Shown here: positions 31,301-62,772 of the stretch, in pieces
How the letters are laid out: every line of letters starts with the position of its first letter
Position numbering within the stretch: the stretch's first letter is position 1
From: Planctomycetota bacterium
GTDB taxonomy: Bacteria > Planctomycetota > UBA8108 > SXIK01
Assembly (NCBI GenBank): GCA_965223845.1
Contig: CBDCXR010000004.1
Coordinates: forward strand, 2,400,001 to 2,464,000
Direction: 5' to 3'
DNA length: 64,000 nt
Program-made: the position numbers and the translations under genes
Notes under the pieces: generated by a model
Database searches by the model: none
Told to the model about the DNA's origin: nothing
The model's input: only the letters and a program-made list of their open reading frames with translations

Positions 31301-31421
31301 GATTTGGCGACAACACGAAGAAGAGCCCGAGCCCCACGCAGAGGAGAATCGCAATGGCAAGCGGGACGGCGACGCGCGCGTGTCCTTCGACTCGGATCCG
31401 GTCGGCAATTCGTTCTGACAT
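28332..31421 (-). CDS. Membrane-anchored protein with tandem carboxypeptidase-regulatory-like (beta-sandwich) domains
   Basis: N-terminal TM anchor and repeated I.G.V.D..G.PI.GA.V units. Confidence 0.82.
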   Translation of the reverse strand: MSERIADRIRVEGHARVAVPLAIAILLCVGLGLFFVLSPNPPPGVDPEPDETAAVESAADGTEGGDPAVASGAGAPEAADAPPPSPTPLETDSQSSTLIAQGKITGRGGAPIGGALVRWLDVSERRARAHAHRDRLFTAEETVDVPSPLRDAFAASVVVRSSDDGSYSLPLPAGASVEPGSDGSGDAAEPVQLAGVVIVAADGYAPEIRELETVLISADVEAEAQPQVLELDFVLDAAGRIFGSVTDAEGRPAAGAIVQFDAAQDDGPVFTNPVSRRDPAVPVFEDGTYVVTGLKPGKYSVVARTGDTTLVSTPVSRARTVVIEAGVDATGVDFRLEAGGRIRGVVLDSDGAPIGRAECRVAIEDIVEESVSGNVDLAMLAEEKEVRSDAAGKFEIRGVPFGEAFRATADVRGHPRAASEIVTLTEEEPDADVRIVVEPGFAISGRVIDANGALAEGVHVSTGPTREDFLNVDLAATSRSDRTDQNGEFHLEGLPSGAHTLKASRRMTALFLAPSAELVKQDVEISDRDVEGVEIVLGASESTDGMLGGTVVDDLGGPVEGARVRIVPAHDFVGQSAVTAITDSEGQFSARGITGATFRLEAECDGYADGSVSGVSSGRDDVELVLERAARVRGRVVDAAEQPVTVGNVSTAPVDSASAPLESMAALMRGGRDRDGERISPDGTFDLEVFPGRLRVGADVPGYARGLSKVLDLAPGDVIEDIEIVVERGASVSGKVVDVGGAPIAGATVRLVDADDANDFVGNMLPEMFLSPRNRAISGADGEFRIEHIASGAYRIAASHPLYAASEPRPIRLADEDERTADDIVLSEGGKLTVRLTEGEQPKVGLMVQLLGHGFKQGISDADGKAKFVGLAAGEYLVNAVGGSPLRGKMSVKTRPIELTGEGESEIEIVFGVGSSVRGSVRGLPKTIPMRLVTLRRPGGPGPEDVDPTDMKATMAAARFQAGTGFVAPDDTYVIPDVDPGEYILEVPRMPENPLDMKAMAKMDRTPYFRKTVKVGKTDLELDIVIGGR

Positions 31422-31652
31422 TCCTCGCTCCCTCGCGTCTCGCCGGACAGCCCGTCGCACGCAGAGTTTAGTGTTCTCGATCGAGCCCGCGGCGTCCCTC
31501 ACTCCGCTGGACGCCGCCGGACGGCTCGCCCTACGTTCATCAACGCCCCTCACTCGGAGATGTTGCAACGACTTCGCCCGCAGACGAGTTTTTTCGCCGC
31601 CGCCGAAGTCCCCCCGCTCGCGAGCCTCCCCCCGGAGCCCTCGCGGAGTTCC

Positions 31653-46861: not shown

Positions 46862-47043
46862 CTAGCCCGCATTTCTCACCAGATTCGGTGAGCGAAGCGG
46901 CGAGACGGCGTAAGACGGGAAGGTGGGGACGCACCGACCGGAGGTGTGCTCCTAGCACAGTGAGGATCGAGGTGTTGACACATCCGATGCGCAGTTCTCG
47001 TCTTACGGCGCGGCAGTAGAACCTGGTGAGAAATGCGGGCTAG
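46862..47043. mobile_element. MITE-like palindromic element, copy 2
   Basis: Perfect 21-bp terminal inverted repeats CTAGCCCGCATTTCTCACCAG / CTGGTGAGAAATGCGGGCTAG; no ORF. Confidence 0.82.
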
Positions 47044-50000
47044 CGCCCGTCCCAGACGACGTCCGACGTCTGACCGGCGGACACCTCGACGTCCTCTTCG
47101 AGGATGGTCTCGGGCTCCCCCACCTCCTCGAGCGACATGAGCCCCGCGTTGGGCCCGAGCGCCATCCGTTTCCCCGGCCGCATCACCTGACGATTCACTC
47201 GAACGCGGTAGGTCCCCGGCTCGAGACTCTCGAACTCGAACCGATCGCTATTGACGAACGAGATCATTCGCGTGTTCGGATCCGGCTGACCATCGCGGAG
47301 CCGCACGGCCTCAACCCGGAAGTTCAGCGTGTCTTTCTTCTCGAGCTTCACGCTCGCGCGCGAGAGATTCGTGTTGACGCGTCCCTCGATGCGGCCCACC
47401 TCGCGCATGCGAAGCTCGATGTGAGCGGAGCGGTCGACGACGATCGGCGCGGGCTTTTCAACCAGCGCCCAGAGCGCGTCCCTCGCCCTCACTTTGTGCT
47501 CACCCGGCGTGAGTCCTTCGAGCCGAAACTCGCCGGTTTCGCTGCTCGTCGCGGTCGCGGAGTGGTAGAACTCGAACGACCCCGGCTCGGGCGCGTCTGT
47601 GGTGAGTGCCGCCCGAACGTGGACACCGGGGATCGGTTTCCCCGCTTCGGTGACAACTCTTCCGGTGATCGTCGCGCCCGGATCGAGCGCGAGGTCCAGC
47701 TCCTTGGCCTCGCCGGCGTCGAGCGTGAGCTCCCGTCGGTAAGGACGGAATCCGTCCGCGAGGACCTGGATTTCGTAGCGCCGCGCCGTGAGACCGTCGT
47801 AGCTGTACCGTCCGGCGGAATCGGCGAACCGGAGTGAGCCGACCGAGCCCGCACGGTAGTTGGTCATGCCCGACTCGCGTTGGATGCGCTTTCGCCTTTC
47901 GACGTCGACGAGCGTGATGCCGAACTCTCGGACGGGCTCGCCCGTACGCAGGTTCGTCGCGCGTCCCCAGAGAACGGCGAAACGCTCGAGCACGATGTCG
48001 TCCAAGGGCTCGCCCGCGGTCACGGCGTCGATGCTCCTAGCTTCGTAGCCGCGCCGCCGAGCGACGATGAGATACTCACCGTCTCCGAGGTCGCGGAGCT
48101 CGAACCGACCGTCCTCCCCCGTATGCGTCCACGACTCCCCCTTCGCCGTGAGCAGAGACATGCGGTGCCCGAACTCGTCGTCCGAATACCGACGTCCAGA
48201 CGCCGAATCGACGGAGGAAGCCCGGGCCGCTACCTGCACTCCCGCGAGCGCGCGCCCTTCTTGGTCGACGACTCGCCCTTCGAGCGTTTTCCCGGCCTCG
48301 AGCACGAAGTCTCGGTTGGGCTCGACGGCGACCTCGATGGTTTCGGAGATGCGAGCGAAGCCCGGCGCGGATACCGTGATCGGCACGACCGCCCGCGGGA
48401 GCCGACGGAACCGGTAGCGCCCCGCCGCGCCCGAAAACGTCGCGCGAACGCTCGCGCGCTCGAGACCCGCGCGCTCCGCCTCGCCGTATTCGCCGTCGAG
48501 CGCAATCCGCGCTCCGGCGATGGGCTCACCTTCGGCGTCGAGCACTTTCCCGGAGAGCTCGAGTCCACGATCGAGCTCGACGACGAGAGGCGAGCCTTCA
48601 CTCTGGTGGTCGGTCCAGCGAATCGGACCGGTTCGAACGGGCGCGAACGACTCGTGCGTCACGACCACGTGGACTTCGCCGAATGAACGCCCCTCTCGTG
48701 AAGCAACCGAGTGTCGGCTGAGCCCCTCCTCGTCCGTCGACAAGCGCCGCGAGAGGATCACTTCGTCGTACCAGTCGCCGATGCCCTCGACTTCGAGCCT
48801 CACGCGAGCGCGCGGCACGGGCTCGCCATCGGTCGTCCTCGCGAGCACGAAGAGGGTCGACGGACGAGGAAAGCGAAACTCGACCTCGGAGCGCTTCCCG
48901 CCGTCCGGAGCCAGCGTCACGAGCTCCGAGTTGTGTCCGATCTCCGGATGCTCGGCGTAGATTCGCAGTCGACCACCGAGGACGCGTTCGATGGGAATGC
49001 CGGCGAGCTCGAACAAGCCGTTCTCATCCGTCGTCGTCTCTCGCGGGACGTCCTGTCGAACCTTGATCACCGCACCCGCGATGGGCTCTCCGTCGGGTTC
49101 GAACACCACGCGACCAGCAACCGAGACTCCTTCGCGGAGACGCACGTCGACCGCCGATGAACCGGCGGCGACCCCTGGGAGCGTCGCATCCACGTAACGT
49201 TCGTGACGGATCTCGAGTGTCCACTCACCCTCGCTCACCGGCTCGAGAATGAACGTACCGTCGTCTCCAGTGCGCGTCTCGACCAGCGGATCCGCAGTGT
49301 CCCTCGATCTGAATCCACCGTTCACCTCGAGTCGGTTCCAGTCGATCGCCACCTCGGCGTCCGCGATCGGCGCGCCGTCGGCATCCACGACTCGGCCTGA
49401 GATCTCCAGAGGAACGGCGAGGACGATGTCGCCGAGTTCGGTGATCTCGCCGACTTCGACCTCGCGCGTGAAGAAAGGGAACGCGTCGGCACGGACAACG
49501 AGGTCGAACGCGCCCGTGCCCGCTCCGGTGAGCTCGAACGCGCCGGTCGCGTCGGTGCGCGTCTCGCCGCCCGCTTGATCGTTCGCGTCCGCGACGACGA
49601 TCTCGCTCGCGAAAAGGCGATGGACCTCACCGCGCGCGAGTCGAGCGAGTCGCACTGCCGCGTTCTCCACGGCTTCGCCCCGGGCGTCGACGACGCGGCC
49701 GCGGACGACTCCCGCGGGTTCCATTTCGATCCGTACGTCGTCGGTCCCGCTCTTCACGTCGCGGGTAAACGCCGAACGATAGCCGCGGAGCTCCGCTTCG
49801 AGGTCGTAGACGACGGGTTCGAGGGAATCGAAGTGAAACTTTCCGTTCTCGTCCGACTGGAGTTCGCGCGGCTCGAAGAGGATCCTCCCTCGGCGCCACT
49901 GGGAAACGAGCTCCCGAACGCGCTCGACGGAGTCCGTGTGCCACCCCCGAGCCGCGTAGGCGGTCAAACGTACGCCGGGAATGGGAGTACCGGTTCGATC

Positions 50001-51326
50001 CACCACACGACCGGCGATCTCCGCGGCCGGGGCGAGCTCGACGGTTGCCTCGGCGACGGCCGGCGGACGGATATCGACGAAGACGTCCGACCGGGGCAGG
50101 AAGCCCCCCTTCGATACGACGAGGCGATAGTCTCCGGCGGCCACGTCGGCGAACGCGAAGCTTCCGTCGACGTCCGATTCGACGCGGGGTGCGTCCGACA
50201 CGATCTGGACGAACTCTTCGCGCAGCTCGCGCGACCACGCGCCGAGTTCGCGCATCGTCTCGTTCGCCAACTCGGAATCGGGTCGCGCGAGATCGCTCTC
50301 AGCGATGAGACGAACGACGGCCTCCGGAATCCCGCGGCCGAGTCCGTCCGTCACTCTGCCCGTGAGATTCGGCGGCGGAACCAGGGTCGCGACCTCCGCG
50401 GCCGAGTCCGCCGCGGGCTCAACGGGCGTCGTCCTCGCGGCGCCACGCCCGAGATTCGAGACCTCGCCGGTCTCCTCGTCGTCGATTCGCTCGAGCGAAG
50501 TCGTCTCCGGTCCAGCTTCGTCGTCGATCCCGATAGCCCACCAACCGCCGAGGAGTATGGCGATCGAAGCCACCGCCGCGGCGACAACCTTCTTGCTACT
50601 CACGATGGATCCTCCGGTGATGATCGGTGTCCAAGCACTCGAGGTCACTCCCGCTCCCGCACCGGCACCTGCGGCCGTGAGGCCTTCGAGTGCGGTGCCG
50701 AGTGCGGTGATGCGGTCGAGTCCACTGACGACGGCCTCGGGAAGCGGCGGAATGACTCCGCCGTGGAGCCCACCCGCCGCTCCGAGGAGCGTCGCCGAGC
50801 CGATTCCGAGGCGCCGTTCGAGGAACGCGCGCGCCTTCCCGAGCCGGAAGCGGACCGCACGCTCGGTGATTCCGAGCGCGCTGGCCACTTCGCCGGGGGA
50901 GAGATCTGCGAGGTAGCGAAGCTCGATGGCCGCCCTTTGATCGCGCGGCAACTCGTCGAGCGCTCGGTCGAGGGCTTCGACGTCGTCCGCCGACTCGCCC
51001 GAACCTCGCAGTCTCTCGTGTAAACGCCGAACGTGCTCCTCCTCGCGGCGCCGACGACGTTCGCGCGAACGCCGCAAGCGCCCGACTCGGCCGAACACGC
51101 ACCACACCAAGTACCCACGAACCGACTCGACGTTCTCACCCCGCGGCGGTGAGACGAGGAGCTTCACGAAGACGTCCTGGCAGACGTCGGCGGCGTCCTC
51201 CGAGCTCGACGTCATCCGGTAGGCGACGCGCCAAACGAACTCGCGGTACTCGGCGACGACGCGCGCGAGGTTACGGCGGTTCGGCCGGCGGAGATACCGG
51301 GTGAAGGAGTCGGGCTTCGGGGACAT
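47040..51326 (-). CDS. ECF sigma-70 factor fused through a TM helix to tandem carboxypeptidase-regulatory-like domains
   Basis: Region 2 DAADVCQDVF, region 4 LPRDQRAAIELRY..EVASALG, a TM segment and repeated G.V.D..G.PI.GA units. Confidence 0.88.
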   Translation of the reverse strand: MSPKPDSFTRYLRRPNRRNLARVVAEYREFVWRVAYRMTSSSEDAADVCQDVFVKLLVSPPRGENVESVRGYLVWCVFGRVGRLRRSRERRRRREEEHVRRLHERLRGSGESADDVEALDRALDELPRDQRAAIELRYLADLSPGEVASALGITERAVRFRLGKARAFLERRLGIGSATLLGAAGGLHGGVIPPLPEAVVSGLDRITALGTALEGLTAAGAGAGAGVTSSAWTPIITGGSIVSSKKVVAAAVASIAILLGGWWAIGIDDEAGPETTSLERIDDEETGEVSNLGRGAARTTPVEPAADSAAEVATLVPPPNLTGRVTDGLGRGIPEAVVRLIAESDLARPDSELANETMRELGAWSRELREEFVQIVSDAPRVESDVDGSFAFADVAAGDYRLVVSKGGFLPRSDVFVDIRPPAVAEATVELAPAAEIAGRVVDRTGTPIPGVRLTAYAARGWHTDSVERVRELVSQWRRGRILFEPRELQSDENGKFHFDSLEPVVYDLEAELRGYRSAFTRDVKSGTDDVRIEMEPAGVVRGRVVDARGEAVENAAVRLARLARGEVHRLFASEIVVADANDQAGGETRTDATGAFELTGAGTGAFDLVVRADAFPFFTREVEVGEITELGDIVLAVPLEISGRVVDADGAPIADAEVAIDWNRLEVNGGFRSRDTADPLVETRTGDDGTFILEPVSEGEWTLEIRHERYVDATLPGVAAGSSAVDVRLREGVSVAGRVVFEPDGEPIAGAVIKVRQDVPRETTTDENGLFELAGIPIERVLGGRLRIYAEHPEIGHNSELVTLAPDGGKRSEVEFRFPRPSTLFVLARTTDGEPVPRARVRLEVEGIGDWYDEVILSRRLSTDEEGLSRHSVASREGRSFGEVHVVVTHESFAPVRTGPIRWTDHQSEGSPLVVELDRGLELSGKVLDAEGEPIAGARIALDGEYGEAERAGLERASVRATFSGAAGRYRFRRLPRAVVPITVSAPGFARISETIEVAVEPNRDFVLEAGKTLEGRVVDQEGRALAGVQVAARASSVDSASGRRYSDDEFGHRMSLLTAKGESWTHTGEDGRFELRDLGDGEYLIVARRRGYEARSIDAVTAGEPLDDIVLERFAVLWGRATNLRTGEPVREFGITLVDVERRKRIQRESGMTNYRAGSVGSLRFADSAGRYSYDGLTARRYEIQVLADGFRPYRRELTLDAGEAKELDLALDPGATITGRVVTEAGKPIPGVHVRAALTTDAPEPGSFEFYHSATATSSETGEFRLEGLTPGEHKVRARDALWALVEKPAPIVVDRSAHIELRMREVGRIEGRVNTNLSRASVKLEKKDTLNFRVEAVRLRDGQPDPNTRMISFVNSDRFEFESLEPGTYRVRVNRQVMRPGKRMALGPNAGLMSLEEVGEPETILEEDVEVSAGQTSDVVWDGR

Positions 51327-51556: not shown

Positions 51557-54500
51557 CTAGTCCGACGAATTCTCGTTCGCGGTGTTTGCCACCGGGATCG
51601 CTCCGGGCGGGAGGAGATGTTTCTGCAGCTCGCACAGCCAATCGACCACGCCGCGCGAGGCCGATGCGTCCGCGTTGAACGTTCCCGCAACGCCCTCGTC
51701 GAACAGCAGGTCACCGATATGCTCACCGAGCGCGCGGTAAGCTTCGAACTGGTCTTCATCGAAGAGCTGGTCCGCAGTGCTCTGGTGCGGAAACTCCGGA
51801 TGGCGCTCGTGGTAGTCGAGAATCTGGACGTCCTCGTCGCCCGTGAGCGAGGCCTTCACGTAGAGGATGTAGCCGCGCGGGAGCTTCTTCCCATCGAGGT
51901 CCGTACCGTAGTCGACGACACCGAGAGCGAAATGAGCCCCGCTGTACTCGTCTCGCGAGCGGCGAATCGACGATAGATCGATCTCGGTCGAAACTCCGAG
52001 ATCGATCTTCGCGTGGCGAAGCGCTTTGACGATAGCCCGGCACGAGCGGTCCGCGTCGGCCTCGCCGTCGACGACGATCATGAGCTTGCAGCGGCGGCGA
52101 AGGAGCTCGTAGAGACCGAGATTCTCGATGTGCCCCCCGTCCGAGACGTAGACGAACGGCAGGTTCTCGTGCACCTGACCGCGCGCCTCGCAGAGCAGGT
52201 ACCGGGCGTCGGGTGAACTCGGACCGGTCACCTTCTCGTGCCCTGGATTCCGCAGCCAGTAACCGAGGCGAAGGTTCGCGAGGGTCGTGAGCGGAGTCAA
52301 AGCGGCGATCGTGAATCGCCCCATGAGCGATGACACCGCCGCACCCGAGGTCGCCATCGCCGTCGCGAGATCGAGCGCCGGATTGACGTTCGTCCACTGC
52401 GCGGTCGGCCTATACCCGACGATCGGGCTCCCCGAGTGATGCCGGCTGTAGACGAAAAAGTCCGCGCGCCGTCCGCGCAGATCGGGGTTCTTGCTCGCCG
52501 GAAGATTTACCGCCGAGTTGATCAAGTGGTACGGCGCCGCTCCTGACGCGAGGTCGGCGAGCTCGCGTCGACGAGCCTGTCCGTTCGCATCGACAATAAA
52601 CGTCGCGGCGAGACGCGCTCGGTAAAGGAAATGAAGTGCGGTCTCGTTGACGTCTACGGAGAAGAAGAGCGCGAGCGTCGAGAGGCCCGCAACGAGCGCG
52701 AGACCCGTCGGCGTCAACGGGACGACGGAACCGAGGTGGATGGCGATCGCTAGCGCCGCCGCCGGCGCCGCGACCACGAGCACGAACGCTCCCCAGACCT
52801 CGAGAGATTTCGACGCGCGCGGGACGGCCGAGATCGCTACGAGAATCGCCGCGAGAAGGGCCAGCCCTCCAGCGACCAACGCGGGGTGGAATCGAAGTGC
52901 CGCGTCGTCCGCACTCAGGAACTTCTCGAATAGAGCAAGCGCGAGATAGAAGAAGCCCGCGACGCCGATCGTGAGTCCTGCGCCTCGAACGAAGACCGAC
53001 ACCGTGCGCGTCCAGCGAGAAGGGTGTCGCCAGTTCATAACGAGAACCGCCGCGACCGCCGCCGCGATCGCAACGAGGCCCAAGAGAATCCACTGCCACG
53101 TGAAGTCTCCGGTCGGTCCGCCCGTTGCGGCGTCCGGTGCGCCCACGCCCTCCGCCGACGACGAAGAGTCCGTCGCGAGAAGATTCGCGAGAACGAGGAA
53201 CGACAATGCGACAGCGACCGGCAAGACCGTCCCCAGGAGAGCGATCACGACTCCCAGCGCTCCGCGACGACGGCGGAAGAGGAAGAGGACGCCCGCGACG
53301 ACGAGACTGGCGCCGTAGATTCCCCCGACGACGAGAAGGAGTCGCCCGTCGGTTTGCCAGTGGCTGAATGCAGCGCAGGCTAGCTCCGCAGCGCCGAGGA
53401 CGAGCGATGCGACCAGCGTCAGCGCCGCCGCTTTCCCGACCGACGACGTAAATCCCGCGCGCGGCGACGCACACCGAAGAAAGAGGTACAGAAACGGAAG
53501 CGAGACGACAGTCACTCCGATCCAGCCCCAGACCTGCCCCGGAAGAATCGACGAGTTCGCCTCGAGGATCGCTCCCACGTGTTCGGGAGCGATCGCTGCG
53601 ACGAGCGAGGCGATCGCGATCAAGCCCGCGAACAGAACGGCGGTGTTGATGACGATCCCGTAGGCGATCGCCGCCGCCGCGACGGCCTTGCCGACGAGAT
53701 CGTCGACGCGAAGAAATCGCGCACCGTTTCGAACCGCGCGTCCGGCAACGGATTCGTCGCGGAGCTGCGTATCGACCGGTAGCGAAGGCGGCGGCGACGC
53801 CGTCGAGGCCGATTCGGAATCTCCCGCGCCCGACTCGTCACTCGGCGCCGTCTCCGGCGGGGATTCGCCTTCGGAAGACGACGCGGCGAGACACGAGCTG
53901 ATGAAGGCGCCCGTGTACCCTCCACCCGACACGGTCGAGAGGTAGTCGATGTCGCGAAACACCTTGTGCTTAACGAGCGACTGAACGAAGCCGAGCGAAA
54001 ACGTCGCCGAGCGGATGCCTCCGCCGGAGAGACTGAGCCCCGAGCGACCTTTCCGTTCGCCGCACTTCGAACCGACGAGTTTCCTTCGGCGCTCGATGTT
54101 CGCCGATTCGTCGGTGTAGATCTTCTCCCAGCCTTCGATGAGCGTCCGGCAGCTCGCAGCCGAGAGACTCCAGTCGTCGTCGACCGGATCCTTCCTCGGC
54201 TCGAAGCCCGTCTCCGTGCCGCGGATGTGGTTGTCTTCGGCGAGCTCCGCGAGGACGGTCATAAACTCGCGCACGCTCTCTTGAACGCCGACGAGCTCCG
54301 AACGGAACTTCCGGCAATCATCGTCCGATTTGAACGCGCCGGCGACGAGCTTACCGTGCCAGTTCGCGGTAAACGGACGCAGTCGACGATTGAGAAGAAT
54401 GGTGCTCAGCGTCGCGAAGTGCCACGCCTTGCGGCCCTTGTCCCTCGTCAGCTTCCGAACGAGATCGAAAAGCGAGAAAACGCTCTTCAGTGCTGTCGCT

Positions 54501-54724
54501 TCATCGCCGGAACGCGGGTGGAGCGGCTGAGTGGTGATCCGCGTGCGGAGCTCCGTGTAGAGATCCCACGCTGCCTCGCCGTCCTCCTTGCTCGGCTGCC
54601 ACGGCGCCTCCGCGAGATGGGCCAGCGGCGAGTCGCCCGTCGTCGCGTCTTCGCCGAGCACGCGCTCGAGCCTCGATTTCCACGTGCCCGCTGACGTCGT
54701 CTCTTCGTTCCCCGCTTCGACCAT
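51557..54724 (-). CDS. Patatin/cPLA2-like phospholipase with a multi-TM insertion and an uncharacterised N-terminal helical domain
   Basis: LSLSGGGIRSA (oxyanion loop), YLSTVSGG (nucleophile Ser), SDGGHIENLG (catalytic Asp) and FPHQST.DQ.F; about 10 hydrophobic segments; GGAGG RBS before ATG 54724. Confidence 0.88.
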   Translation of the reverse strand: MVEAGNEETTSAGTWKSRLERVLGEDATTGDSPLAHLAEAPWQPSKEDGEAAWDLYTELRTRITTQPLHPRSGDEATALKSVFSLFDLVRKLTRDKGRKAWHFATLSTILLNRRLRPFTANWHGKLVAGAFKSDDDCRKFRSELVGVQESVREFMTVLAELAEDNHIRGTETGFEPRKDPVDDDWSLSAASCRTLIEGWEKIYTDESANIERRRKLVGSKCGERKGRSGLSLSGGGIRSATFSLGFVQSLVKHKVFRDIDYLSTVSGGGYTGAFISSCLAASSSEGESPPETAPSDESGAGDSESASTASPPPSLPVDTQLRDESVAGRAVRNGARFLRVDDLVGKAVAAAAIAYGIVINTAVLFAGLIAIASLVAAIAPEHVGAILEANSSILPGQVWGWIGVTVVSLPFLYLFLRCASPRAGFTSSVGKAAALTLVASLVLGAAELACAAFSHWQTDGRLLLVVGGIYGASLVVAGVLFLFRRRRGALGVVIALLGTVLPVAVALSFLVLANLLATDSSSSAEGVGAPDAATGGPTGDFTWQWILLGLVAIAAAVAAVLVMNWRHPSRWTRTVSVFVRGAGLTIGVAGFFYLALALFEKFLSADDAALRFHPALVAGGLALLAAILVAISAVPRASKSLEVWGAFVLVVAAPAAALAIAIHLGSVVPLTPTGLALVAGLSTLALFFSVDVNETALHFLYRARLAATFIVDANGQARRRELADLASGAAPYHLINSAVNLPASKNPDLRGRRADFFVYSRHHSGSPIVGYRPTAQWTNVNPALDLATAMATSGAAVSSLMGRFTIAALTPLTTLANLRLGYWLRNPGHEKVTGPSSPDARYLLCEARGQVHENLPFVYVSDGGHIENLGLYELLRRRCKLMIVVDGEADADRSCRAIVKALRHAKIDLGVSTEIDLSSIRRSRDEYSGAHFALGVVDYGTDLDGKKLPRGYILYVKASLTGDEDVQILDYHERHPEFPHQSTADQLFDEDQFEAYRALGEHIGDLLFDEGVAGTFNADASASRGVVDWLCELQKHLLPPGAIPVANTANENSSD

Positions 54725-54768
54725 CGGCCCCTCCGTCGGCTCGCTCGCTCCCGCTTTGACGTGACGGC

Positions 54769-54873
54769 ATCTTCTTCTGTCCACGAAACACTGTCAATCG
54801 AGGCGAGACGTTCGTACTCGTGCGGGCTCCGTGATCGACCGGCGTTGACATCGAATCACGAGAGGACGACACT
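54769..54873. promoter_or_regulatory. Putative back-to-back sigma70 promoters
   Basis: TTGACA on the minus strand (54792-54797) with GAAGAT 17 nt downstream; TTGACA on the plus strand (54845-54850) with GACACT 17 nt downstream. Confidence 0.45.
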
Positions 54874-54979
54874 GAGACCCAACGGTAACGATCGTGGAAC
54901 GGGCGGCTGTGGTCTCGCGCGACGCCCGCCGTCCAGTCGTGCGCCTTACGATCGAGCGTCTCGTCTGGGAGTCGACGTA

Positions 54980-55507
54980 ATGCCTCTCAAGCTCAGCTCC
55001 TTCAGCATCAATCTTCCGTTCGGAATCGGAGGGATGGACGTCATCGTCTCCGAAGCCCAAGCGAACGCGGCATGGGCGCTCTACGTCGAGCTCGCGACGC
55101 GCATCGCAACCGAAAAGCTCGAGCCTGGGCAGGGTCTCGTCCGTGAAGCCTTGACCTCGATCTACAAGCTCTTCGACATCATCCGAGGCGTGCTCAAAGA
55201 CCAGGGCCCGGGTGTCGCGGCCGGACCGAACTCGGTCGGGCCGATCGCGATCGAAGTGCTCAATCGCGGGCTCCGTCCGTTTCTGGTCCGCTGGCACACG
55301 AGCTTCAGCGAATTCGAGCGAGCGGAGACGAAGCGGCAGCGCGTCGAATTCGGCGCGGACGCTCCGGTGGTAATCGAGGACCGCGATTGGCCGGAGCGCG
55401 ACGCGTTTTACGAGGCGCTCGAGGAGAATCGTCTGGCTCTCAAGCAGTACGTCGACGCGCTCGGAGCGATCGCCGGCGTCGCGCAATCGGAGAGTGACGG
55501 TCGCTGA
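54980..55507 (+). CDS. Small helical protein homologous to the N-terminal domain of the neighbouring patatin
   Basis: ATG with a GGGAG RBS; AAW.LY.EL.TRI and LNR.LRPF...WH motifs shared with the patatin N-terminus. Confidence 0.85.
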   Translation: MPLKLSSFSINLPFGIGGMDVIVSEAQANAAWALYVELATRIATEKLEPGQGLVREALTSIYKLFDIIRGVLKDQGPGVAAGPNSVGPIAIEVLNRGLRPFLVRWHTSFSEFERAETKRQRVEFGADAPVVIEDRDWPERDAFYEALEENRLALKQYVDALGAIAGVAQSESDGR

Positions 55508-55537
55508 CGTCGGCCGCCTAGGGCGTGAAGGGACGCG

Positions 55538-57622
55538 GTGAGCGGAACCTCGATGACTCGTCTTCCGTTTCGGATCCAGGTCCTCCACCACCCGCAGTCC
55601 GATGCGGGCGCGCGATTCGCGCGAGCGCTATTCGATCGGTTCTCCCTCTCGCGCGGACCGCGGATTCCGCTCGTCTACGGGAGCGAGCAACCGAACGGCG
55701 GGCCGCCCGATCGACTCGAGCTCGACGCGGCGGAGAAATCGGTCGTCGTCGTCCTCGCCGACAAACGCATGGCGCGCCGTGTCGCGGGTGGCAGCGGCCC
55801 AGCGTGGGCGAAGTTTCTGATCGAGTCGCTCGCGCTCGTCCCGCCGGGCTCTCCCGATCACTGTGTTCTTCCCGTGGCGCTCGACGTCGGAGCGTTCGAC
55901 CTCGGATCCGAGCTCGAAGAGACGAGCTTCGTCCGCTTGGACGCGATCAAGGACGAAGAGAAGGAAGCGGAGCTCGAGTATCGAGTCGCGGTCAACAGCC
56001 TCGAAATCTTGGGGTTTCGAGTCCCAGACAAGTCGACGGTGACGAGCGATCGACCGCGTCCGCCGGTCAACTTCTTCCTCAGCCACGCGAAGCAGGACCT
56101 TCCCGCCCCGGGGGAAGACGGTCCCGTCGGCGCAATCCTCAAGCACTTCGCCGACGGTCGTGTCGATAGTTGGTACGACGCGAAAGACATTCGCGCGGGG
56201 GAAAACTTCGCCGCCCGCATCGAGAGTGGAGTCGATCGCGCCTCGGCGCTGATCGCGGTGATCACCGATTCCTTCGCCTCGCGCGAGTGGTGCCGGAAGG
56301 AGATCCTCTTCGCGAAGACCCGCTGCGGACCGGTGGTCGTCGTCGACGCCGTTGAGGCGGGCGAATCGCGCGCGTTTCCCTACATCGGAAACGCACCGAC
56401 CATCCGTTGGCGACCGGGCCCCTACGCAGCGCGAGACGTCGTCCTCGCCGCCGTGCGGGAGGCGCTCAAGTTCGAACATCACCTGGCGACGCTGCGCGCG
56501 AGAGAGAACGAGTCGACGAAGGTGCTTCCGAGCGCACCGGAGCTCATTTCCATCGCGGGGCTCGACGCAGCGGTTCGTCGCATCGTCTATCCCGACCCTC
56601 CCCTCGGCCGCGAGGAGCTCGAGCTCCTCGGGAATGCACGCGGCGACCTCGAGTTCACGACCCCGCTCTCGGAGCTCGCGTCGCACCGTCCGCACTCCGG
56701 GACGCGTCCGCATCGTCTCGGACTCTCGATCTCGGGGAGTCAAGACATCCGGGCGTACGGCGTCGGCCCCGAGCACATGGCCGCGTTCGCCGACGACCTC
56801 GCCCTCTTCTTTCTCCTCGCCGGCTCGCAGCTCGTCTACGGCGGCAATCTGTCCCACGGTGGCGGCGACGGGGACGAGGAGAATTTCGTGACGAGGCTCT
56901 TCGGCGCGGTGCGCAGTTACTCCCCGCTCGCGAAGGATCTCGGTCTCGAAGATCGGGCGGGCGTGTATCCACTCGTCAACTACGCGCCGTGGCCGCTTCA
57001 CCACGCCTTCTCCGACGAGCAGTACGATCAGTTCGGGAAGCTCGCGGGTCTCGAAGAGCTCGAGCGACCCCACTCGCTCGGCGTCGACGAGGGGGAGCTC
57101 GGCGTGAAGGACGGGGAGTTCTTCATCGCCGACACTCCGGCCCGGCGATTCGCCTGGGCGCGGTCGCTCACGGAGCTCCGCACGAGGCTCGTCGCAGAGA
57201 CCGACTCCCGCGTCGTCCTCGGCGGGAAGACGAAGGGGTTCTTCGGCGTGTACCCCGGAGTTCTCGAGGAGGCGGTTCTCACCCTCGAGTCGCAGGATCC
57301 GAAGCCACTCTTCGTCGTCGGAGCCTTCGGCGGCGCGGGACGGATCGTCGTCGACATGCTTCGCGGCGTCGACCGCGAGGAACTCACGACCGAGTGGGCG
57401 GAGCAGAATATCGACGACTACGACGCGGTCGTCGACCTCTACGCCCGCGCCGGAATCCCGTTTCGAACGCCGGAGTCCATCGCGGATTCGCTCCGGGCGA
57501 AGCGCGCTCTCGGTTTCGCCGGTGCGCTGCGGAACGGACTGAGCGACGAGGAGAACGAAGAGCTCTTCGACGGGACGGATCCACGGCGACTCGTGGAGCT
57601 CGTGCTCAGGGCTCGCGAATAA
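55538..57622 (+). CDS. TIR domain protein with a C-terminal SLOG-like domain
   Basis: TIR FFLSHAKQD..SWYD..SREWCRKE (catalytic-position Glu); YPDPPLG; SLOG-like LGLSIS..LVYGG..RVVLGGK..PGVLEEA..GAFGGAG. Start at 55538 or 55553. Confidence 0.85.
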   Translation: MSGTSMTRLPFRIQVLHHPQSDAGARFARALFDRFSLSRGPRIPLVYGSEQPNGGPPDRLELDAAEKSVVVVLADKRMARRVAGGSGPAWAKFLIESLALVPPGSPDHCVLPVALDVGAFDLGSELEETSFVRLDAIKDEEKEAELEYRVAVNSLEILGFRVPDKSTVTSDRPRPPVNFFLSHAKQDLPAPGEDGPVGAILKHFADGRVDSWYDAKDIRAGENFAARIESGVDRASALIAVITDSFASREWCRKEILFAKTRCGPVVVVDAVEAGESRAFPYIGNAPTIRWRPGPYAARDVVLAAVREALKFEHHLATLRARENESTKVLPSAPELISIAGLDAAVRRIVYPDPPLGREELELLGNARGDLEFTTPLSELASHRPHSGTRPHRLGLSISGSQDIRAYGVGPEHMAAFADDLALFFLLAGSQLVYGGNLSHGGGDGDEENFVTRLFGAVRSYSPLAKDLGLEDRAGVYPLVNYAPWPLHHAFSDEQYDQFGKLAGLEELERPHSLGVDEGELGVKDGEFFIADTPARRFAWARSLTELRTRLVAETDSRVVLGGKTKGFFGVYPGVLEEAVLTLESQDPKPLFVVGAFGGAGRIVVDMLRGVDREELTTEWAEQNIDDYDAVVDLYARAGIPFRTPESIADSLRAKRALGFAGALRNGLSDEENEELFDGTDPRRLVELVLRARE

Positions 57623-57921
57623 TCCGCGCCGCTTGCCCCGTTTCAACTACACGATCTCGGCGATCGAAGAGCCTCCCTGCGCGCCACCGAGTCGACAAGT
57701 CGTTTCGGAGGCAGCACTTATCGCCTTGACAGCCCGGTCTTAATACGAGCACACTGGGCGCGTCGTCAGAACGCAGCGAAGGTCCGAATCGGTCGGACCC
57801 CGGGACAAGTGGACGCCTGTCGAATCGAACACTCGGTTTTCTTGTGTTCCTCCGAACAGACGACAACTGCGCGCGCAGGTTCGGGTGGGCAGTCGACGGG
57901 ACGGAGCAGTGAGGAACTCAC

Positions 57922-58314
57922 GTGTACATCGTCAACGCGAGTCAGGCGCAGATTGAGTACGATCTGTCGTTTTCGGGACAGTATTCCGGGACGCTCGACC
58001 CGGGCGAGGCGACGCAGTATCCCTCGGGGTTCATACCCTCGGGGGAGTCGGGGACGATCACGGTAAGCGGGTACAACAACGTCACCGTGACGGACGACGA
58101 AACGGTCGAGTACAAAGACAACCAAACCGTGACGGAGTCGACGGCTAGTCCGACGCTGTCGAACTGGTGTGAGTTCGAGTGGCAAAACGGGGCTTGGGAG
58201 CCGACGGGCATGAATCAGTGCGGCACGAATAAGGTCTGTCCGACGGTGGAGGAAGTAAACGCCAGCAAAGGTCCTGGGACGGACGGCCAGCAAATCTACG
58301 AGCAGTGCGAGTGA
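57922..58314 (+). CDS. Small acidic hypothetical protein with a C-terminal 4-Cys region
   Basis: GTG start with a GAGGA RBS and a composition unlike shadow ORFs. Confidence 0.65.
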   Translation: MYIVNASQAQIEYDLSFSGQYSGTLDPGEATQYPSGFIPSGESGTITVSGYNNVTVTDDETVEYKDNQTVTESTASPTLSNWCEFEWQNGAWEPTGMNQCGTNKVCPTVEEVNASKGPGTDGQQIYEQCE

Positions 58315-58593
58315 TCGCGGCGGGCGAAGAGGTCTCGTCCGCGGGTTCTGGCAGGACACCTGAGCCCGTACGACGATCTTAAAGGCTTCGTGAGGGTCGT
58401 GGACTCACCGAGCGACCCTCACCGAGCCACCCAGCGGGTTTCTGATCGGAAGAGTCGAGTTTCGAAAAGTCTAGCGCGAGCAGAGGTGGGACGAGCCTCG
58501 CTCGGGCGACCGGCGGTTCGTGTTCGACTGTAGTCGTCGACAGTCCATCCTGTCGAGGCACTGGCGCTCTTACTCTCCTTAGGTCATCTCCCA

Positions 58594-61500
58594 GTGAGTC
58601 CCGATCCCCTCGAGCGCCTCCGCGGTCAAATCAACGAGGAACTGGCTCGGCTCTGCGACGAACACCCGGAACGGAGCGGGGAGTTCACGACATTCGGGCA
58701 CGGCGTCGTCGCAATCCTCGACCGGCTCGCAGATTCTCTCGCCGGTGATGTAGACCGCACGGTATCGCTCGCGCCGGCAGACGCGGCCGCCCTTGATACG
58801 ATTTCAACTCCGGCGGGCGCCGGCTCTTACGAGGAACGGAGCGAGCTCGGACGTGGGGGGATGGGCGTGGTCCTCGAAGTCTGGGATCAGCGCATCCAGC
58901 GACCGCTCGCCATGAAGGTTCTCCTCAACGAGGGCGGCGCGGTGTCCGGATCGAACACGACGAGCGGCGTCGTCGCGCGGTTTCTCCGAGAGGCGCGGAT
59001 CACGGGCCAGCTCAGTCACCCGGGGATCGTGCCCGTTCACGAGATCGGCAAGGATCCCGCCGGTCGAGTGTACTTCACCATGCAGGTGGTTGCAGGTAAG
59101 AGCCTCAAGGAGGAACTGACCGACGCGCGTAGCGAATCCGAGACGTCCGCTCCGACCCGATTTCTCGGCGTCCTCGTTAGAGTGTGCGAGACCTTGTCGT
59201 TCGCCCACTCCCGCGGGGTCATCCATCGCGATCTCAAGCCGGCGAATATCATGGTGGGTCGCTTTGGCGAGGTGTACCTCATGGATTGGGGGCTCGCGAA
59301 GGTCATCCGCGAAACGGATGAGCTCTTCGGCGTCACCGAACTAGACCCAGGTTCTGGCGCGGCGTCCGAATCATCGGCGGTGGAAATGACCATCGACGGC
59401 GCGGTCATCGGAACTCCGATGTACATGCCCCCCGAGCAAGCGATGGGTCACATCGACGTCTTGGACGAGCGTTCGGACGTCTATTCTCTCGGCGCCATTC
59501 TCTACGAGTTGATCGCCGAGCGCGCGCCGTATCGCGACCAGGAGGGTTTGAGCAGCCCGATGGAAATCGTGGATGCGGTGCGAACTGGCCCGCCGACCGC
59601 CCTCCATCGTGTTCGGGCGAACACACCTCCTGAACTCCTGGCCATTTGCGAGAAGGCGATGGCCCGAGGCCCGGATGACCGCTATCAGTCCGCAGAGGAG
59701 ATGCGTGAGGATCTCCGTGCGTTTCTCGACAACCGAGTCGTTGAGGCGTACCGGACGGGAGCGCTCGTCGAGCTTCGGAAGTGGATCGCTCGCAATCGCA
59801 GCGAAGCCGCCGCGATCGGAGCCGCAGCGGCCATCGCAATCGCGGCGTTTGTGTCCGTAGCGTGGGTGCAGTCTCGCCGGGCCACGGATCTCGAGGAGTA
59901 TTCTCGTGGCGTCGAGGAAGCCCGCGGCCGCACGGAGCAGGCCCTCCGCGAGGAGGAAGCCGCCCATCGGCGTTCTCAGGGATTGTATCTCGCCGCTCAG
60001 TCGACTCGCGTCGAATCGGAGAATCCCGGTCTCGCGCTTCGACTCGCGCTGGAGTCGCACCGGGAACTCCCCAGCGTGTTCGCGAACAGCTCCATTCTCC
60101 GGTCACTGCGGGTATCGCATGAGATTTCGGACTCAGCATTTGGTCTAGATCCTAAGGGCTCGCCGCCTCAACTGAGTCCCCGAGGCGATCGATTCGCGTA
60201 CGCGCGAACGGATGGGGCGGTCGTCGTCGCGGATTTCGAGTCCGGCGCTACAGTGTCTCTGCTGGTCGACCAAGGACGACGACTGGATCAGCTCACGTTT
60301 CACCCTGACGGACAACGGATCGCGACGTCGTCCTCCGATGGGACTGCGTGCGTTTGGGACGCAGAATCTGGACGTCTCCTCACGCGCTTCACGGGTCACT
60401 TAGACGATGGCGACGAACCCTTTGTCGCGTCCATTGCGTTTAGCCCGGATGGCTCGCAGGCAGTTTCCGCGGGTCGCGGCGTCGCACGAATTTGGCGACC
60501 GGATACCGGCGAGGAAATACGAAAACTCCGCGGTCATGACGCGGCCGAATTGATACACGGCGCGGTCTACAGTCCAGATGGGTCGTTGATCGTGACGCAC
60601 TCGCACGATCGAACGGCCCGAATCTACAATACCGCGGTGGTCGATCTGGGCGCGGTCATCGCGAGGCACGAGGGGTGGATCAGCACTGCTCTGTTCGATC
60701 CGACCGGACGCTTCGTCTTAACGCTAGACGACGAACGGAATCGAAAGCCGACGCCCTCAATGCGCCGAATTCTTCGTGTCTGGAACGTATTGGAAGGGCG
60801 TGAGGAAGAACCCCGCCGACACGAGGAAAAGATCGTCGGCGCGTGCTTCACTCCCGACGGACGCAAGATCATCAGCGCGACGTCGGATGGAATCTTTATC
60901 TGGGACACCGATTCCGGCGAGTGCACGACTGTCAATCCGCTCGGAGGAGGAATTCCGTCCTGTATCGCGATTCGAGGCGACGGCGCGCAGCTCCTCGAGG
61001 GTCGATCCGATGGCACGGTTCGGATCTGGGACTTAGAGTCGATTGCCGTCGCCCGCGTGCTGCGCGCGCACGATTCGCGCATAACGTCGGCGTTGTTCAC
61101 TCGTGACGGACGCGGAGTCTTGACGAGCTCGTTCGATGGAACCGTGCGCGCTTGGCGCACAAACCGTCATCACGAGCTTAGCGCCACGCGCGTCGGAGGC
61201 GAGCCGAGGTTTGCCGAGGTCAGCGCGGACGGGAGGTTGATGGTCGCGGCCGTGCTCAACGCCCGATCTGCTACCGTCTCGTCGGTTGGCGACCCCCGCC
61301 CCTCGATAGTGCTTGATCACGCCGCGAACATCGCGGGGGTCGAGCTGCGTGCTGAACAGAACACTGTCGTTACCTGGGACAAGGAGAAGACAGCACGGGT
61401 ATGGGATATAGAGAGCGGGCGTCTTCGTTCGACGATCGGCCCGGTATCAACTCGGAGCGTGAGTCGAGACGCTCGTTTTTTGATGGGAATCGGTTCCGAT

Positions 61501-62772
61501 GGACGTGCCCAGCGCTGGGGCCTCGAGGACGGGACCCTCAGTAGCGAACTGCGCGGTGAAGGCAGGTTTGAAGACGCTACTTGGTTCTTCTCACCGGATG
61601 GCCAGCACGCATTTCTCGTCTCTAAATCCAGTGACCGGCTCGATGTCGACGTCGATGTGTACTCGTTCTCTAAGCCTGAGTTAGTTAAGAGTCTCAAATC
61701 GGTGGGGTTCGGTGCGCACGTGTCGAGTTCACCGACTGGTGACCGATTCTTGATTCTGCGGTTTGGTTACCATTCGCTCAGCGTACACGAGACAGCGACC
61801 GGTGAAAGGATCCGAGAACTGACCGGTCATACAGATACCGTGTGGAGCGCAGTCTTCTCTGGCGACGGGCGTTGGATCGTCACCGCGTCTAAAGACGGAA
61901 CTGCTCGCTTGTATTCGACGACGGATGCGTCCGAAGATCGCGTGTTTCGGGGGCACGAGGCGCCGATCACGACTGCACACGTCGACTACAGCGGAACTCG
62001 CATCGTCACCCGTTCGCCGGGAGATCATTCTAGTCGCTTGTGGGACGCTCGGACGACCGAAGAGATCGATCATCTCGAGTACGAGGCATGGTTTCGCGCC
62101 GAGTTCGGTCGGACCGGACAATACTTGTTCGTCCACTACCAATCGGGCATCGTTCAAGTCGTCAACGCCCGCACCGGCGATCCCGTCCTCTCGCTCGGGG
62201 ACAAAGATGACCCGATACGAATCATGGACTTCACCGATGACGAGCAATGGTTGCTCACCGCAACGCAGAGCGGCGTCGTCCAGCTCTCCCCCACCGACCC
62301 CGCCGCCTACGCCCGGCAATTCAACCCCCGCGAGCTCTCCTACGTCGAACGCGTTCGCCACCAAGTCGGCACGCCCGAAGAGCGCGAGGAGTACCGCCGA
62401 ACGTCTTCCTTTCGGCTGCACATTCAGGAGCTCAGACTCATCGCGAAATCGATCGCGGAGCCGAACGACTCCCCGGGGCGCGTTCTCCCGGTGTTGCGCC
62501 GGCGGCTGAAAGATATCACCGATCTCCTCGCCGAGGACTTCCCCGTCGATAAGGAGATCCCGCGCGTCGCGGCCTTTGAAGCAAAGGTCGTCCTCGAGCG
62601 CGATGGAACACCGGATCCCGAAGCGCTCCAGCTTCTCGCCACGATCCAGGAAGCGGCCGGTGATCTCGACGGTGCAGTGGATTCGCTCGAAACCGCGGCG
62701 AAGGATTCCGACGCGCCCGCGGAGATCAAGACGAAGCTCGAGGAGCTTCGCGCCGCACGAGTTCGTGACTAG
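58594..62772 (+). CDS. Ser/Thr protein kinase with a WD40 propeller and a C-terminal TPR-like tail
   Basis: LGRGGMG.V, HRDLKPAN, MDWGLAK and GTPMYMPPEQ; GH..WD repeats. Confidence 0.92.
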   Translation: MSPDPLERLRGQINEELARLCDEHPERSGEFTTFGHGVVAILDRLADSLAGDVDRTVSLAPADAAALDTISTPAGAGSYEERSELGRGGMGVVLEVWDQRIQRPLAMKVLLNEGGAVSGSNTTSGVVARFLREARITGQLSHPGIVPVHEIGKDPAGRVYFTMQVVAGKSLKEELTDARSESETSAPTRFLGVLVRVCETLSFAHSRGVIHRDLKPANIMVGRFGEVYLMDWGLAKVIRETDELFGVTELDPGSGAASESSAVEMTIDGAVIGTPMYMPPEQAMGHIDVLDERSDVYSLGAILYELIAERAPYRDQEGLSSPMEIVDAVRTGPPTALHRVRANTPPELLAICEKAMARGPDDRYQSAEEMREDLRAFLDNRVVEAYRTGALVELRKWIARNRSEAAAIGAAAAIAIAAFVSVAWVQSRRATDLEEYSRGVEEARGRTEQALREEEAAHRRSQGLYLAAQSTRVESENPGLALRLALESHRELPSVFANSSILRSLRVSHEISDSAFGLDPKGSPPQLSPRGDRFAYARTDGAVVVADFESGATVSLLVDQGRRLDQLTFHPDGQRIATSSSDGTACVWDAESGRLLTRFTGHLDDGDEPFVASIAFSPDGSQAVSAGRGVARIWRPDTGEEIRKLRGHDAAELIHGAVYSPDGSLIVTHSHDRTARIYNTAVVDLGAVIARHEGWISTALFDPTGRFVLTLDDERNRKPTPSMRRILRVWNVLEGREEEPRRHEEKIVGACFTPDGRKIISATSDGIFIWDTDSGECTTVNPLGGGIPSCIAIRGDGAQLLEGRSDGTVRIWDLESIAVARVLRAHDSRITSALFTRDGRGVLTSSFDGTVRAWRTNRHHELSATRVGGEPRFAEVSADGRLMVAAVLNARSATVSSVGDPRPSIVLDHAANIAGVELRAEQNTVVTWDKEKTARVWDIESGRLRSTIGPVSTRSVSRDARFLMGIGSDGRAQRWGLEDGTLSSELRGEGRFEDATWFFSPDGQHAFLVSKSSDRLDVDVDVYSFSKPELVKSLKSVGFGAHVSSSPTGDRFLILRFGYHSLSVHETATGERIRELTGHTDTVWSAVFSGDGRWIVTASKDGTARLYSTTDASEDRVFRGHEAPITTAHVDYSGTRIVTRSPGDHSSRLWDARTTEEIDHLEYEAWFRAEFGRTGQYLFVHYQSGIVQVVNARTGDPVLSLGDKDDPIRIMDFTDDEQWLLTATQSGVVQLSPTDPAAYARQFNPRELSYVERVRHQVGTPEEREEYRRTSSFRLHIQELRLIAKSIAEPNDSPGRVLPVLRRRLKDITDLLAEDFPVDKEIPRVAAFEAKVVLERDGTPDPEALQLLATIQEAAGDLDGAVDSLETAAKDSDAPAEIKTKLEELRAARVRD

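Follow-up and report, generated by a model that had tools for sequence, protein, structure and literature searches.

This locus raises the question of whether three adjacent genes form a defence module in which a TIR domain signals to a membrane phospholipase. The genes lie at positions 51557-57622 of a 64,000-nucleotide stretch of a Planctomycetota genome (contig CBDCXR010000004.1, hereafter the window) and encode a patatin-like phospholipase interrupted by a hydrophobic insert (gene A), a protein of 175 amino acids (aa; gene B) and a TIR domain fused to a SLOG domain (gene C). A preliminary description of this DNA had proposed a new Thoeris-like system made of these parts. All three genes were found to be real and adjacent, with A transcribed divergently from B and C and 255 bp from ATG to ATG (Table 1). 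We read the locus as a Thoeris-like, TIR-centred signalling module with the phospholipase as executioner and a helical domain common to A and B, here called the N-domain, as receiver or regulator, and would give this reading a probability of about one half. It draws on what was observed of domain content and intact catalytic residues, on the paralogy of B with the N-terminus of A, and on the repeated, independent linkage of TIR-SLOG genes to N-domain genes and lipases in other genomes.

The TIR-SLOG architecture of gene C was borne out by profile searches and structure prediction. In Pfam scans, C matched TIR_2 over residues 179-261 (E 4.7e-10, above the cut-off) and the SLOG cluster 2 family PF18163 over residues 392-676 (E 4e-58; 197.5 bits versus a cut-off of 25.3). 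The glutamate of the WCRKE motif is encoded by GAG exactly where it had been placed, at 56300-56302, and W251, C252, R253 and E255 are invariant in 32 of 32 aligned relatives, so that by profile match and catalytic glutamate the TIR domain is predicted to be enzymatically competent. The SLOG residues P573, G574, E577, E578, G595, G598, G599 and A600 are likewise invariant among the 32 relatives; the PG-LEE motif resembles the catalytic motif of LOG enzymes. Scoring of 8000 candidates gave 318 relatives of C at E<=1e-3. Both Pfam domains recur in every one of the 120 relatives listed, and the 119 other than C itself are 36-48% identical to it, most over 97-99% of the length. The AlphaFold2 model (predicted local distance difference test score, pLDDT, 87; predicted template-modelling score, pTM, 0.88) comprises three alpha/beta domains at residues 9-160, approximately 177-330 and 393-694. 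The best Foldseek match of the SLOG domain was ThsA of type I Thoeris (8wc0, E 2.8e-5, probability 0.97), and further matches included ThsA bound to 3' cyclic ADP-ribose (3'cADPR; 8bto) and the SLOG-like N-terminus of TRPM8.

The open reading frame (ORF) of gene A occupies 51557-54784 on the minus strand and reaches a GTG at 54784, while the database form of the protein (P0124) starts at the ATG at 54724. Its SGGGIRS, S-T-V-S-G-G and S-D-G-G-H motifs, as expected of a patatin, are conserved without change in all 28 aligned relatives, and the codons of the catalytic Ser and Asp were verified, in agreement with the intact catalytic motifs reported before. The nucleophile elbow S-T-V-S-G-G is a variant of G-x-S-x-G, with T replacing the first G. 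A Kyte-Doolittle scan, which is a crude measure of hydropathy and not a predictor of transmembrane (TM) helices, gave 11 hydrophobic segments from the catalytic Ser to the catalytic Asp, two of them abutting, which makes the roughly 10 TM helices of the preliminary description a reasonable count. The same scan found 4-7 hydrophobic stretches in four relatives versus 11 in the window protein. Gene A would encode an unusual effector, its catalytic patatin halves set apart by about 10 predicted membrane segments. The protein had no Pfam, PADLOC or NCBIfam match at E<=0.1 to 1, though PF01734 is precomputed for 110 of 120 listed homologues when the window protein itself lacks a Pfam match at E<=0.1. 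Searches of solved structures (PDB), which include solved patatins and CapV, returned nothing meaningful for A alone or for a 28-sequence A profile. The family is large (4592 of the 8000 candidates scored reached E<=1e-3), and all 120 listed homologues have the N-terminal domain.

Gene B had been described as a small adaptor. On alignment it is instead a free-standing paralogue of A's own N-terminal domain, which elsewhere pairs with many kinds of TIR protein. BLASTP aligned B with residues 65-143 of A at 40% identity over 83 aa (E 2e-15), and B matched 120 of 120 listed A relatives at E 1e-6 to 2e-17. That B is a real gene follows from its 221 relatives standing alone (E<=1e-3 among 415 candidates; 96-307 aa); the 119 listed besides B are 43-63% identical to it, with a Pfam domain in none, and two relatives gave weak matches to TM-type families under the Pfam cut-offs. 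The helical character described earlier agrees with the AlphaFold2 model, a beta-hairpin plus four long helices (pLDDT 90.8). For this fold, Foldseek found no solved relative in the PDB (best E 0.45), a 46-sequence B profile found nothing meaningful there, and neither B nor the N-domain at large matched Pfam. Among 46 aligned B relatives, P13, G17, A31, W32, L34, T40, R41, E56, L58, S60, F65, R69, G76, G87, N95, R99 and W105 are invariant and H106 nearly so, and the A family keeps the counterparts W, R, E, S, F, R, N, R, W and H without exception. The polar set W, R, E, S, R, N, R, W and H common to the solo and patatin-fused families fits a ligand pocket, as far as conservation can indicate one.

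A profile search of 1.84e9 representative proteins with the N-domain returned 1807 at E<=1e-3, of which 1067 reached E<=1e-10. Architectures among the top 150 included solo domains, two or four tandem copies and several fusions. Fusions with TIR occurred in both orders (N-domain followed by TIR and the reverse); a helix-turn-helix (HTH) domain was joined to the N-domain in 6 of 148 proteins, and fusions to BTAD-TPR and a metallophosphatase were also found. In the genomic loci described below, the N-domain is joined to the A-type TM-patatin and to a Tle1-like lipase as well. Fusion to TIR, to SLOG cluster 2 plus metallophosphatase and to HTH is the pattern of a regulatory input domain. A search of 50,697 phage records with B gave no match.

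Several members of the family were observed separately. P0364, P0366 and P0378 (approximately 620-660 aa) and P0368, P0371, P0372 and others (approximately 400 aa) contain four or two tandem N-domains only, by Pfam. In P0503 (1039 aa), P0509 (1091 aa) and P0435 (765 aa), the N-domain is fused to a metallophosphatase-like region. P0503 and P0509 were considered as fusions of B and C and rejected: they consist of an N-domain, a metallophosphatase-like region, a hydrophobic region and SLOG cluster 2, in which TIR was not detected. Two identities for the domain were also set aside. The R99-x6-H106 spacing suggestive of HEPN is present, but there was no HEPN Pfam match, and no HEPN structure was among the listed Foldseek hits, with none at E<=1e-3. 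DUF6650 was proposed for B by a language-model search (score 0.83), a lead only, which Pfam scans did not confirm: PF20355 matched neither B nor any of 46 B relatives and does not appear in the list of 25 families for 148 further N-domain proteins, though a distant relationship may exist. The language-model search with the N-domain of A gave no usable look-alike.

The genomic neighbourhoods of C homologues were used to determine how often these parts occur together. A genome scan with C found 124 relatives, for which 80 loci were kept; the window is not among them. Neighbourhood was defined as within 10 kb of C, and the N-domain was detected by hidden Markov model (HMM); 42 loci had full 10-kb flanks and 9 of the 80 were shorter than 8 kb. 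The loci represent at least 14 phyla, including one Promethearchaeota metagenome-assembled genome (MAG). An N-domain gene was present in 20 of 80, namely 19 by HMM and L052, where a B-like gene directly upstream of C is cut by the contig end. In seven loci (L002, L005, L006, L013, L044, L056 and L079, from Alpha-, Beta- and Gammaproteobacteria and Acidobacteriota), the N-domain was fused to an A-type TM-patatin beside C, and in 11 of the 19 HMM loci it was free-standing. It adjoined C directly (gap <=163 bp between stop-to-stop ORFs) in L002, L006, L013, L054, L056, L058, L067, L074 and L076. Chance co-location with C would be negligible, because the family is rare (1807 of 1.84e9). In a FastTree phylogeny of 78 C proteins, a weaker method than IQ-TREE, N-domain linkage fell on 20 rows, the window included, and needed 18 changes; gains or losses of the link must therefore have been numerous, and it was not inherited as a block.

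A lipase stood beside C in 13 of 80 loci: seven of A type, five CapV-like patatins and one Tle1-like lipase carrying an N-domain. An N-domain gene (HMM set) or a lipase was found in 23 of 80, and among the 42 loci with full flanks a lipase was present in 11 and an N-domain gene in 14. CapV-like patatins are of the kind switched on by nucleotide messengers. The five that abut C are short (L003:12082-13113, L009:2886-3857, L010:8912-9970, L035:1661-2113 and L048:8843-9829); all four of these that were scanned matched PADLOC 'Effector - Phospholipase' models, which we take to be models for cyclic-oligonucleotide-based antiphage signalling systems (CBASS), at 1e-61 to 1e-101, and the L048 protein matched the solved CapV activated by cyclic GMP-AMP (cGAMP) at 5e-45. 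Comparison with solved cyclases detected none in the two ORFs upstream of the short patatins in L048 and L009; the L048 ORF has a C-terminal TIR domain, and for the L009 ORF there is no relative among solved structures. TIR-SLOG may stand in for the CD-NTase cyclase at such loci.

Some further details of these loci were noted. In L004:13167-14747, a Tle1-like phospholipase domain (PF09994) with the N-domain fused at its C-terminus lies approximately 1 kb downstream of TIR-SLOG. The A-type patatin of L044:7210-9717 is split into three ORFs, and the TIR-SLOG genes L091:10710-12793 and L055:5450-7755 into two each, which could reflect frameshifts, assembly errors or decay. Identity of the N-domain with effector-associated domains (EADs), said to go back to Kaur et al. 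in 2020, was rejected: it would need the same domain on core and effector, and the N-domain is single-copy in each of the 19 HMM loci, with two copies only in the window and no EAD Pfam match for B and its relatives.

Plasmid sequences (PLSDB) were searched with A and B. With A, 37 records matched; three covered both halves of the protein, all with an N-domain, and all three of these TM-patatins sit among TIR genes, two of them with C-like genes. On a Mesorhizobium plasmid, a homologue of the first two domains of C, Nmad2 and a MazG-like gene lie nearby, together with three or more ThsB-type TIR genes; on a Sinorhizobium plasmid, the patatin lies among five TIR genes; and on a Rhizobium beringeri plasmid, a C homologue in two ORFs lies directly downstream of it. 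A-type genes abut C on two plasmids as well. Three more distant TM-patatins in PLSDB that lack the N-domain had no annotated TIR gene within 6 kb (0 of 3). With B, seven records matched, and a TIR protein was found beside the B-like gene in four of five examined. It directly follows the B-like gene in Streptomyces cynarae, Photobacterium toruni and Calothrix and lies one insertion sequence (IS) element away in S. longwoodensis; the Ruegeria plasmid had no TIR beside the B-like gene. The TIR proteins paired with B-like genes on plasmids are of several architectures, not solely TIR-SLOG. Adjacency of effector and TIR genes, a recurrent feature of Thoeris, was observed both in the 13 of 80 lipase loci and in the plasmid searches. 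On both Streptomyces plasmids (L084:5158-9344 and L087:1318-7140), a gene for a NUDIX hydrolase adjoins the B-like gene and a TIR-WD40 gene, which hints at the chemistry of ADP-ribose derivatives.

From these data we infer a small-molecule product that is bound by the N-domain, a lipase lethal to the cell and a function in defence against phage. In the proposed mechanism, C would generate or relay a nucleotide signal derived from nicotinamide adenine dinucleotide (NAD), its TIR domain being regulated by the SLOG and N-terminal domains. A would be the effector, a membrane-built patatin lipase restrained by its helical N-domain, and the N-domain would be the receiver or regulatory input that couples TIR activity to whichever output domain it joins. 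B, a free copy co-transcribed with C, would probably act as threshold-setter, buffer or signal relay, and lipase damage would lead to cell death in defence against phage. The recurrent link between TIR-SLOG and lipases, CapV-like ones included, supports part of the preliminary proposal; its assignment of sensing and signalling to the TIR-SLOG protein is less certain, the best structural match of the SLOG domain being the signal receiver ThsA. An extended form, in which N-domains would make up a new receptor class that detects a messenger made by TIR/SLOG proteins and gates lipases, metallophosphatase, TIR and HTH, with B a ThsG-like effector or buffer and TIR-SLOG a self-amplifying generator and sensor, is offered tentatively, as less likely than not.

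A number of observations weigh against the Thoeris-like reading. The three genes occurred together in none of the 80 C loci (seven have the A type without B and 12 the B type without A), so that they do not co-localize as a trio outside the window, and 57 of 80 have neither an N-domain gene nor a lipase. With 4592 hits in the A family versus 318 in the C family, in searches that each scored 8000 candidates, most A relatives cannot adjoin TIR-SLOG. The window is without recognizable defence-island character, is flat in composition and has no TIR gene beyond C by Pfam in its 36 ORFs. PADLOC, the run of which had been suggested earlier, has no model for A or B. The ligand-binding role of the N-domain derives from conservation, because the fold is without a structural relative. 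The direction of signalling is uncertain, since SLOG in ThsA is a receiver and not a generator; whether the N-domain's partner is a small molecule or the TIR protein itself is the second main uncertainty of the mechanism. Were B solely a receiver, it would be difficult to account for operons of B plus TIR that lack a further effector, and Nmad2 or MazG_C genes lie beside C in 26 of 80 loci, where C heads a nucleotide-modification operon.

The direction of signalling could be reversed if C were the effector, a ThsA analogue whose SLOG domain receives the signal of other TIR proteins and whose fused TIR depletes NAD+, with A and B as parallel or auxiliary receivers. The structural match to ThsA, including its 3'cADPR-bound form, speaks for this, as do the partners of C in other genomes: ThsB-type TIR or HMUDK cluster genes adjoin it in 32 of 80 loci, genes of the TIR-NACHT-FGE-sulfatase type occur in 11, WD40 proteins headed by TIR or nSTAND1 where a head was seen in 12, and second TIR-SLOG paralogues in four (L028, L042, L055 and L072). 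TIR-nSTAND1 genes were found in two loci. None of the tallied partner classes, which exclude the second TIR-SLOG and the caspase-CHAT giant described below, was found in 18 loci. The window, however, has no other TIR gene that could supply the signal, and two executioners without a generator would be unworkable there; CapV-like patatins also occur in C operons where a cyclase was not detected. An effector role for C appears unlikely.

Two of these neighbourhoods are unusual. In L073:3015-8393, an ORF of 1793 aa combining caspase (Peptidase_C14), TIR, SLOG cluster 2 and CHAT adjoins a standard TIR-SLOG gene. In L077, the MAG of the Promethearchaeota (Asgard archaea), positions 10001-12001 encode a full-length TIR-SLOG homologue of 28% identity with a ThsB-cluster ORF upstream, and this homologue forms a long branch in the C tree.

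The N-domain might alternatively bind TIR proteins directly, as inhibitor or adaptor, and not serve as a small-molecule receiver. B-like genes directly upstream of varied TIR architectures, fusions of N-domain and TIR in either order, and B-plus-TIR pairs with no other effector would all suit a protein regulator. The same invariant polar cluster is nevertheless retained with patatin, HTH, metallophosphatase or TIR partners, the HTH fusions suggest a ligand-controlled switch, and homotypic pairing of N-domains would need two copies, which are found in only 1 of 20 N-domain loci (the 19 HMM loci and the window). We regard direct regulation as quite unlikely. Prediction of a B-C complex gave a score of 0.00 versus a mark of 0.32, which counts neither for nor against binding.

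The 26 loci with Nmad2 or MazG_C raise the possibility that C is a LOG-like N-glycosidase in nucleotide or DNA-base modification and that the A-B neighbourhood is secondary. The scanned operon L025 has the order C, ThsB_TIR, Nmad2, MazG_C, ThsB_TIR and 5-hydroxymethyldeoxyuridine (5-hmdU) kinase, followed by type I restriction-modification (RM) genes. According to the DefensePredictor paper (PMC13092281), 5-hmdU kinase and thymidylate synthase domains are newly validated in defence and systems with MazG, MazG-C and NMAD domains are predicted and not yet validated, which bears on this operon. The Nmad2/MazG_C clade is separate from that of the window in the C tree (25 and 21 rows), and the window has no Nmad2 or MazG_C genes, so that such a role for C in the present locus is improbable. 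Over its full extent (L025:9965-21996), the operon continues from the 5-hmdU DNA kinase (HMUDK_hel) to type I RM S, Schlafen/AlbA_2 and HsdR genes, with HsdM upstream; similar operons were seen in 25 other loci (e.g. L033, L034 and L023), some with a thymidylate-synthase-like gene. Finally, that the three genes are chance neighbours, with A a membrane lipase of housekeeping function that has nothing to do with the B-C pair, would accord with the housekeeping surroundings, the divergent orientation of A and the restriction of the trio to the window, but is highly improbable given that A-type genes abut C in seven loci and on two plasmids and that A and B share a rare domain.

Table 1. Features of the window discussed in the text; positions count from its first nucleotide.
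Feature	Position	Strand	Remarks
ECF-sigma/CarboxypepD_reg giant protein	47040..51326		flank on the gene A side; Pfam
Gene A	51557..54724	minus	N-domain plus patatin-like phospholipase with a multi-TM insert between its halves; starts at ATG 54724 (1055 aa)
Patatin C-half of A	51560..52648	minus	S-D-G-G-H, Asp codon GAC 52139-52141; conserved C-terminal region
Hydrophobic insert of A	52649..53698	minus	about 10 predicted membrane segments, Kyte-Doolittle (crude)
Patatin N-half of A	53909..54040	minus	oxyanion SGGGIRS and nucleophile S-T-V-S-G-G; Ser codon TCG 53927-53929
N-domain of A	54080..54694	minus	helical, about 200 aa, paralogous to B; local HMM E 5.8e-66
A/B-C intergenic region	54725..54979	no strand	between divergent transcripts; 255 bp from ATG to ATG
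Gene B	54980..55507	plus	175 aa; N-domain protein standing alone
Gene C	55553..57622	plus	three-domain TIR-SLOG, 689 aa from ATG 55553; other start GTG 55538 (694 aa)
N-terminal alpha/beta domain of C	55562..56017	plus	no family assigned; conserved across the C family
TIR domain of C	56066..56527	plus	catalytic Glu255 codon GAG 56300-56302
SLOG cluster 2 domain of C (PF18163)	56711..57565	plus	invariant PG-LEE and G-FGGA motifs
Ser/Thr kinase plus WD40 protein	58594..62772	plus	possible fourth component

B and C lie 30-45 bp apart on the same strand. Scans of the intergenic region between A and B for a sigma-70 consensus promoter and for terminators found nothing, and G+C content across the region is flat at 0.65-0.67. 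As the preliminary description had noted, cyclase, SIR2, Macro and caspase are absent from the neighbourhood, with none found by Pfam in the 36 window ORFs, and the CD-NTase cyclase by which CBASS is recognized had no Pfam or PADLOC match in the window. The rest of the window is housekeeping in character (SUF, sulfatases, an ABC transporter). No known defence genes lie near A-C; other C loci have type I RM, TIR-STAND or caspase-CHAT genes nearby.

The kinase-WD40 gene downstream of C was considered as a fourth component. Loci with an N-domain gene contain WD40 proteins more often (9 of 19) than the remaining loci do (3 of 61; Fisher p 5.8e-5, without correction for kinship). The candidate was rejected, its likeness to the WD40 proteins of other loci being confined to the repeats. 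It is separated from C by a gap of approximately 970 bp (57623-58593), in which the sole ORF is antisense (57766-58359, 197 aa) with no family match. Elsewhere in the window, the giant proteins at 47040-51326 and 28332-31568 each contain many CarboxypepD_reg repeats, the first with an N-terminal extracytoplasmic function (ECF) sigma-factor domain, and a 1715-aa ORF at 12615-17762 joins a Ser/Thr kinase, AAA_16, TPR repeats and a sigma-54 activator domain.

TIR signalling is common to the immunity of bacteria, plants and animals, and, to our knowledge, every new TIR receiver domain so far has revealed a new messenger or a new mode of cell killing. If the extended form of the Thoeris-like reading is true, the locus would represent a new and widespread branch of Thoeris with a receiver domain that has neither a Pfam match nor a relative among solved structures. 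The unannotated N-domain family itself comprises 1807 representative clusters, tied to TIR genes in many phyla and present in several effector fusions. TIR-SLOG cluster 2 proteins would be a hub, the CapV-like patatins found without a cyclase suggesting cross-talk between Thoeris and CBASS effectors.

The preliminary description had stated that the combination matches no recognized system, which needs qualification. Yirmiya et al. 2025 (bioRxiv 10.64898/2025.12.03.692087) validate Thoeris types V-XI and predict 29 types with effectors including phospholipases and TM proteins, and the architecture of the window may already be listed among those predicted types. TIR, DrHyd and SLOG are treated as one clade whose members are enzymes or sensors in PMC9503650. 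Searches of the literature on TIR-SLOG and on SLOG with TIR and patatin found nothing describing the A-B-C locus, and those on DUF6650, PF18163 and 'SLOG cluster2' found nothing beyond PMC9503650, Yirmiya et al. 2025 and PMC13092281. What is new here is the N-domain family with its connection to TIR genes, the occurrence of CapV-like and TM-patatin lipases as partners of TIR-SLOG, and the recognition of B and A as paralogues.

Type I Thoeris consists of the TIR protein ThsB and the SIR2-SLOG protein ThsA, the SLOG domain of which is the receiver. The locus shares with Thoeris a TIR domain with catalytic glutamate, a SLOG fold closest to ThsA, an effector gene that adjoins the TIR gene, and modular swapping of partners. 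It differs in that TIR and SLOG occur in one polypeptide with an extra N-terminal domain, in that the effector is a membrane patatin with a putative receiver domain and, from type I, in that SIR2 is absent from C and from the 36 window ORFs. Type III Thoeris, for which Yirmiya et al. 2025 (bioRxiv 10.64898/2025.12.03.692087) cite van den Berg et al. 2024, has several TIR proteins and a SLOG effector; multiple TIR genes with a SLOG-containing protein are likewise present in the 26-32 C loci with ThsB-type TIRs, whereas the window has a single TIR. Versus a cut-off of 220, the NCBIfam Thoeris_type3 models scored C at 14.1 bits and a neighbour's TIR at 51 bits. Type VI, according to the same preprint, pairs TIR with ThsG, a small DUF6650 protein, and uses 2'cADPR; the small protein beside the TIR gene, sometimes with N-terminal TM helices, and the adjacency of B-like and TIR genes in the same phyla are points of likeness. 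CBASS with CapV shares the patatin phospholipase as membrane-damaging executioner, and 5 of 80 C-adjacent genes are CapV-like; it differs in having a CD-NTase cyclase, which the window lacks, and about 10 membrane segments interrupt the patatin of the window, which is three times as long. The family of SLOG cluster 2/TIR fusions (PF18163), reportedly defined by Burroughs et al. in 2015, includes C as a full-length member (E 4e-58) with no difference in C itself, and what the present analysis adds to that family is its repertoire of partners.

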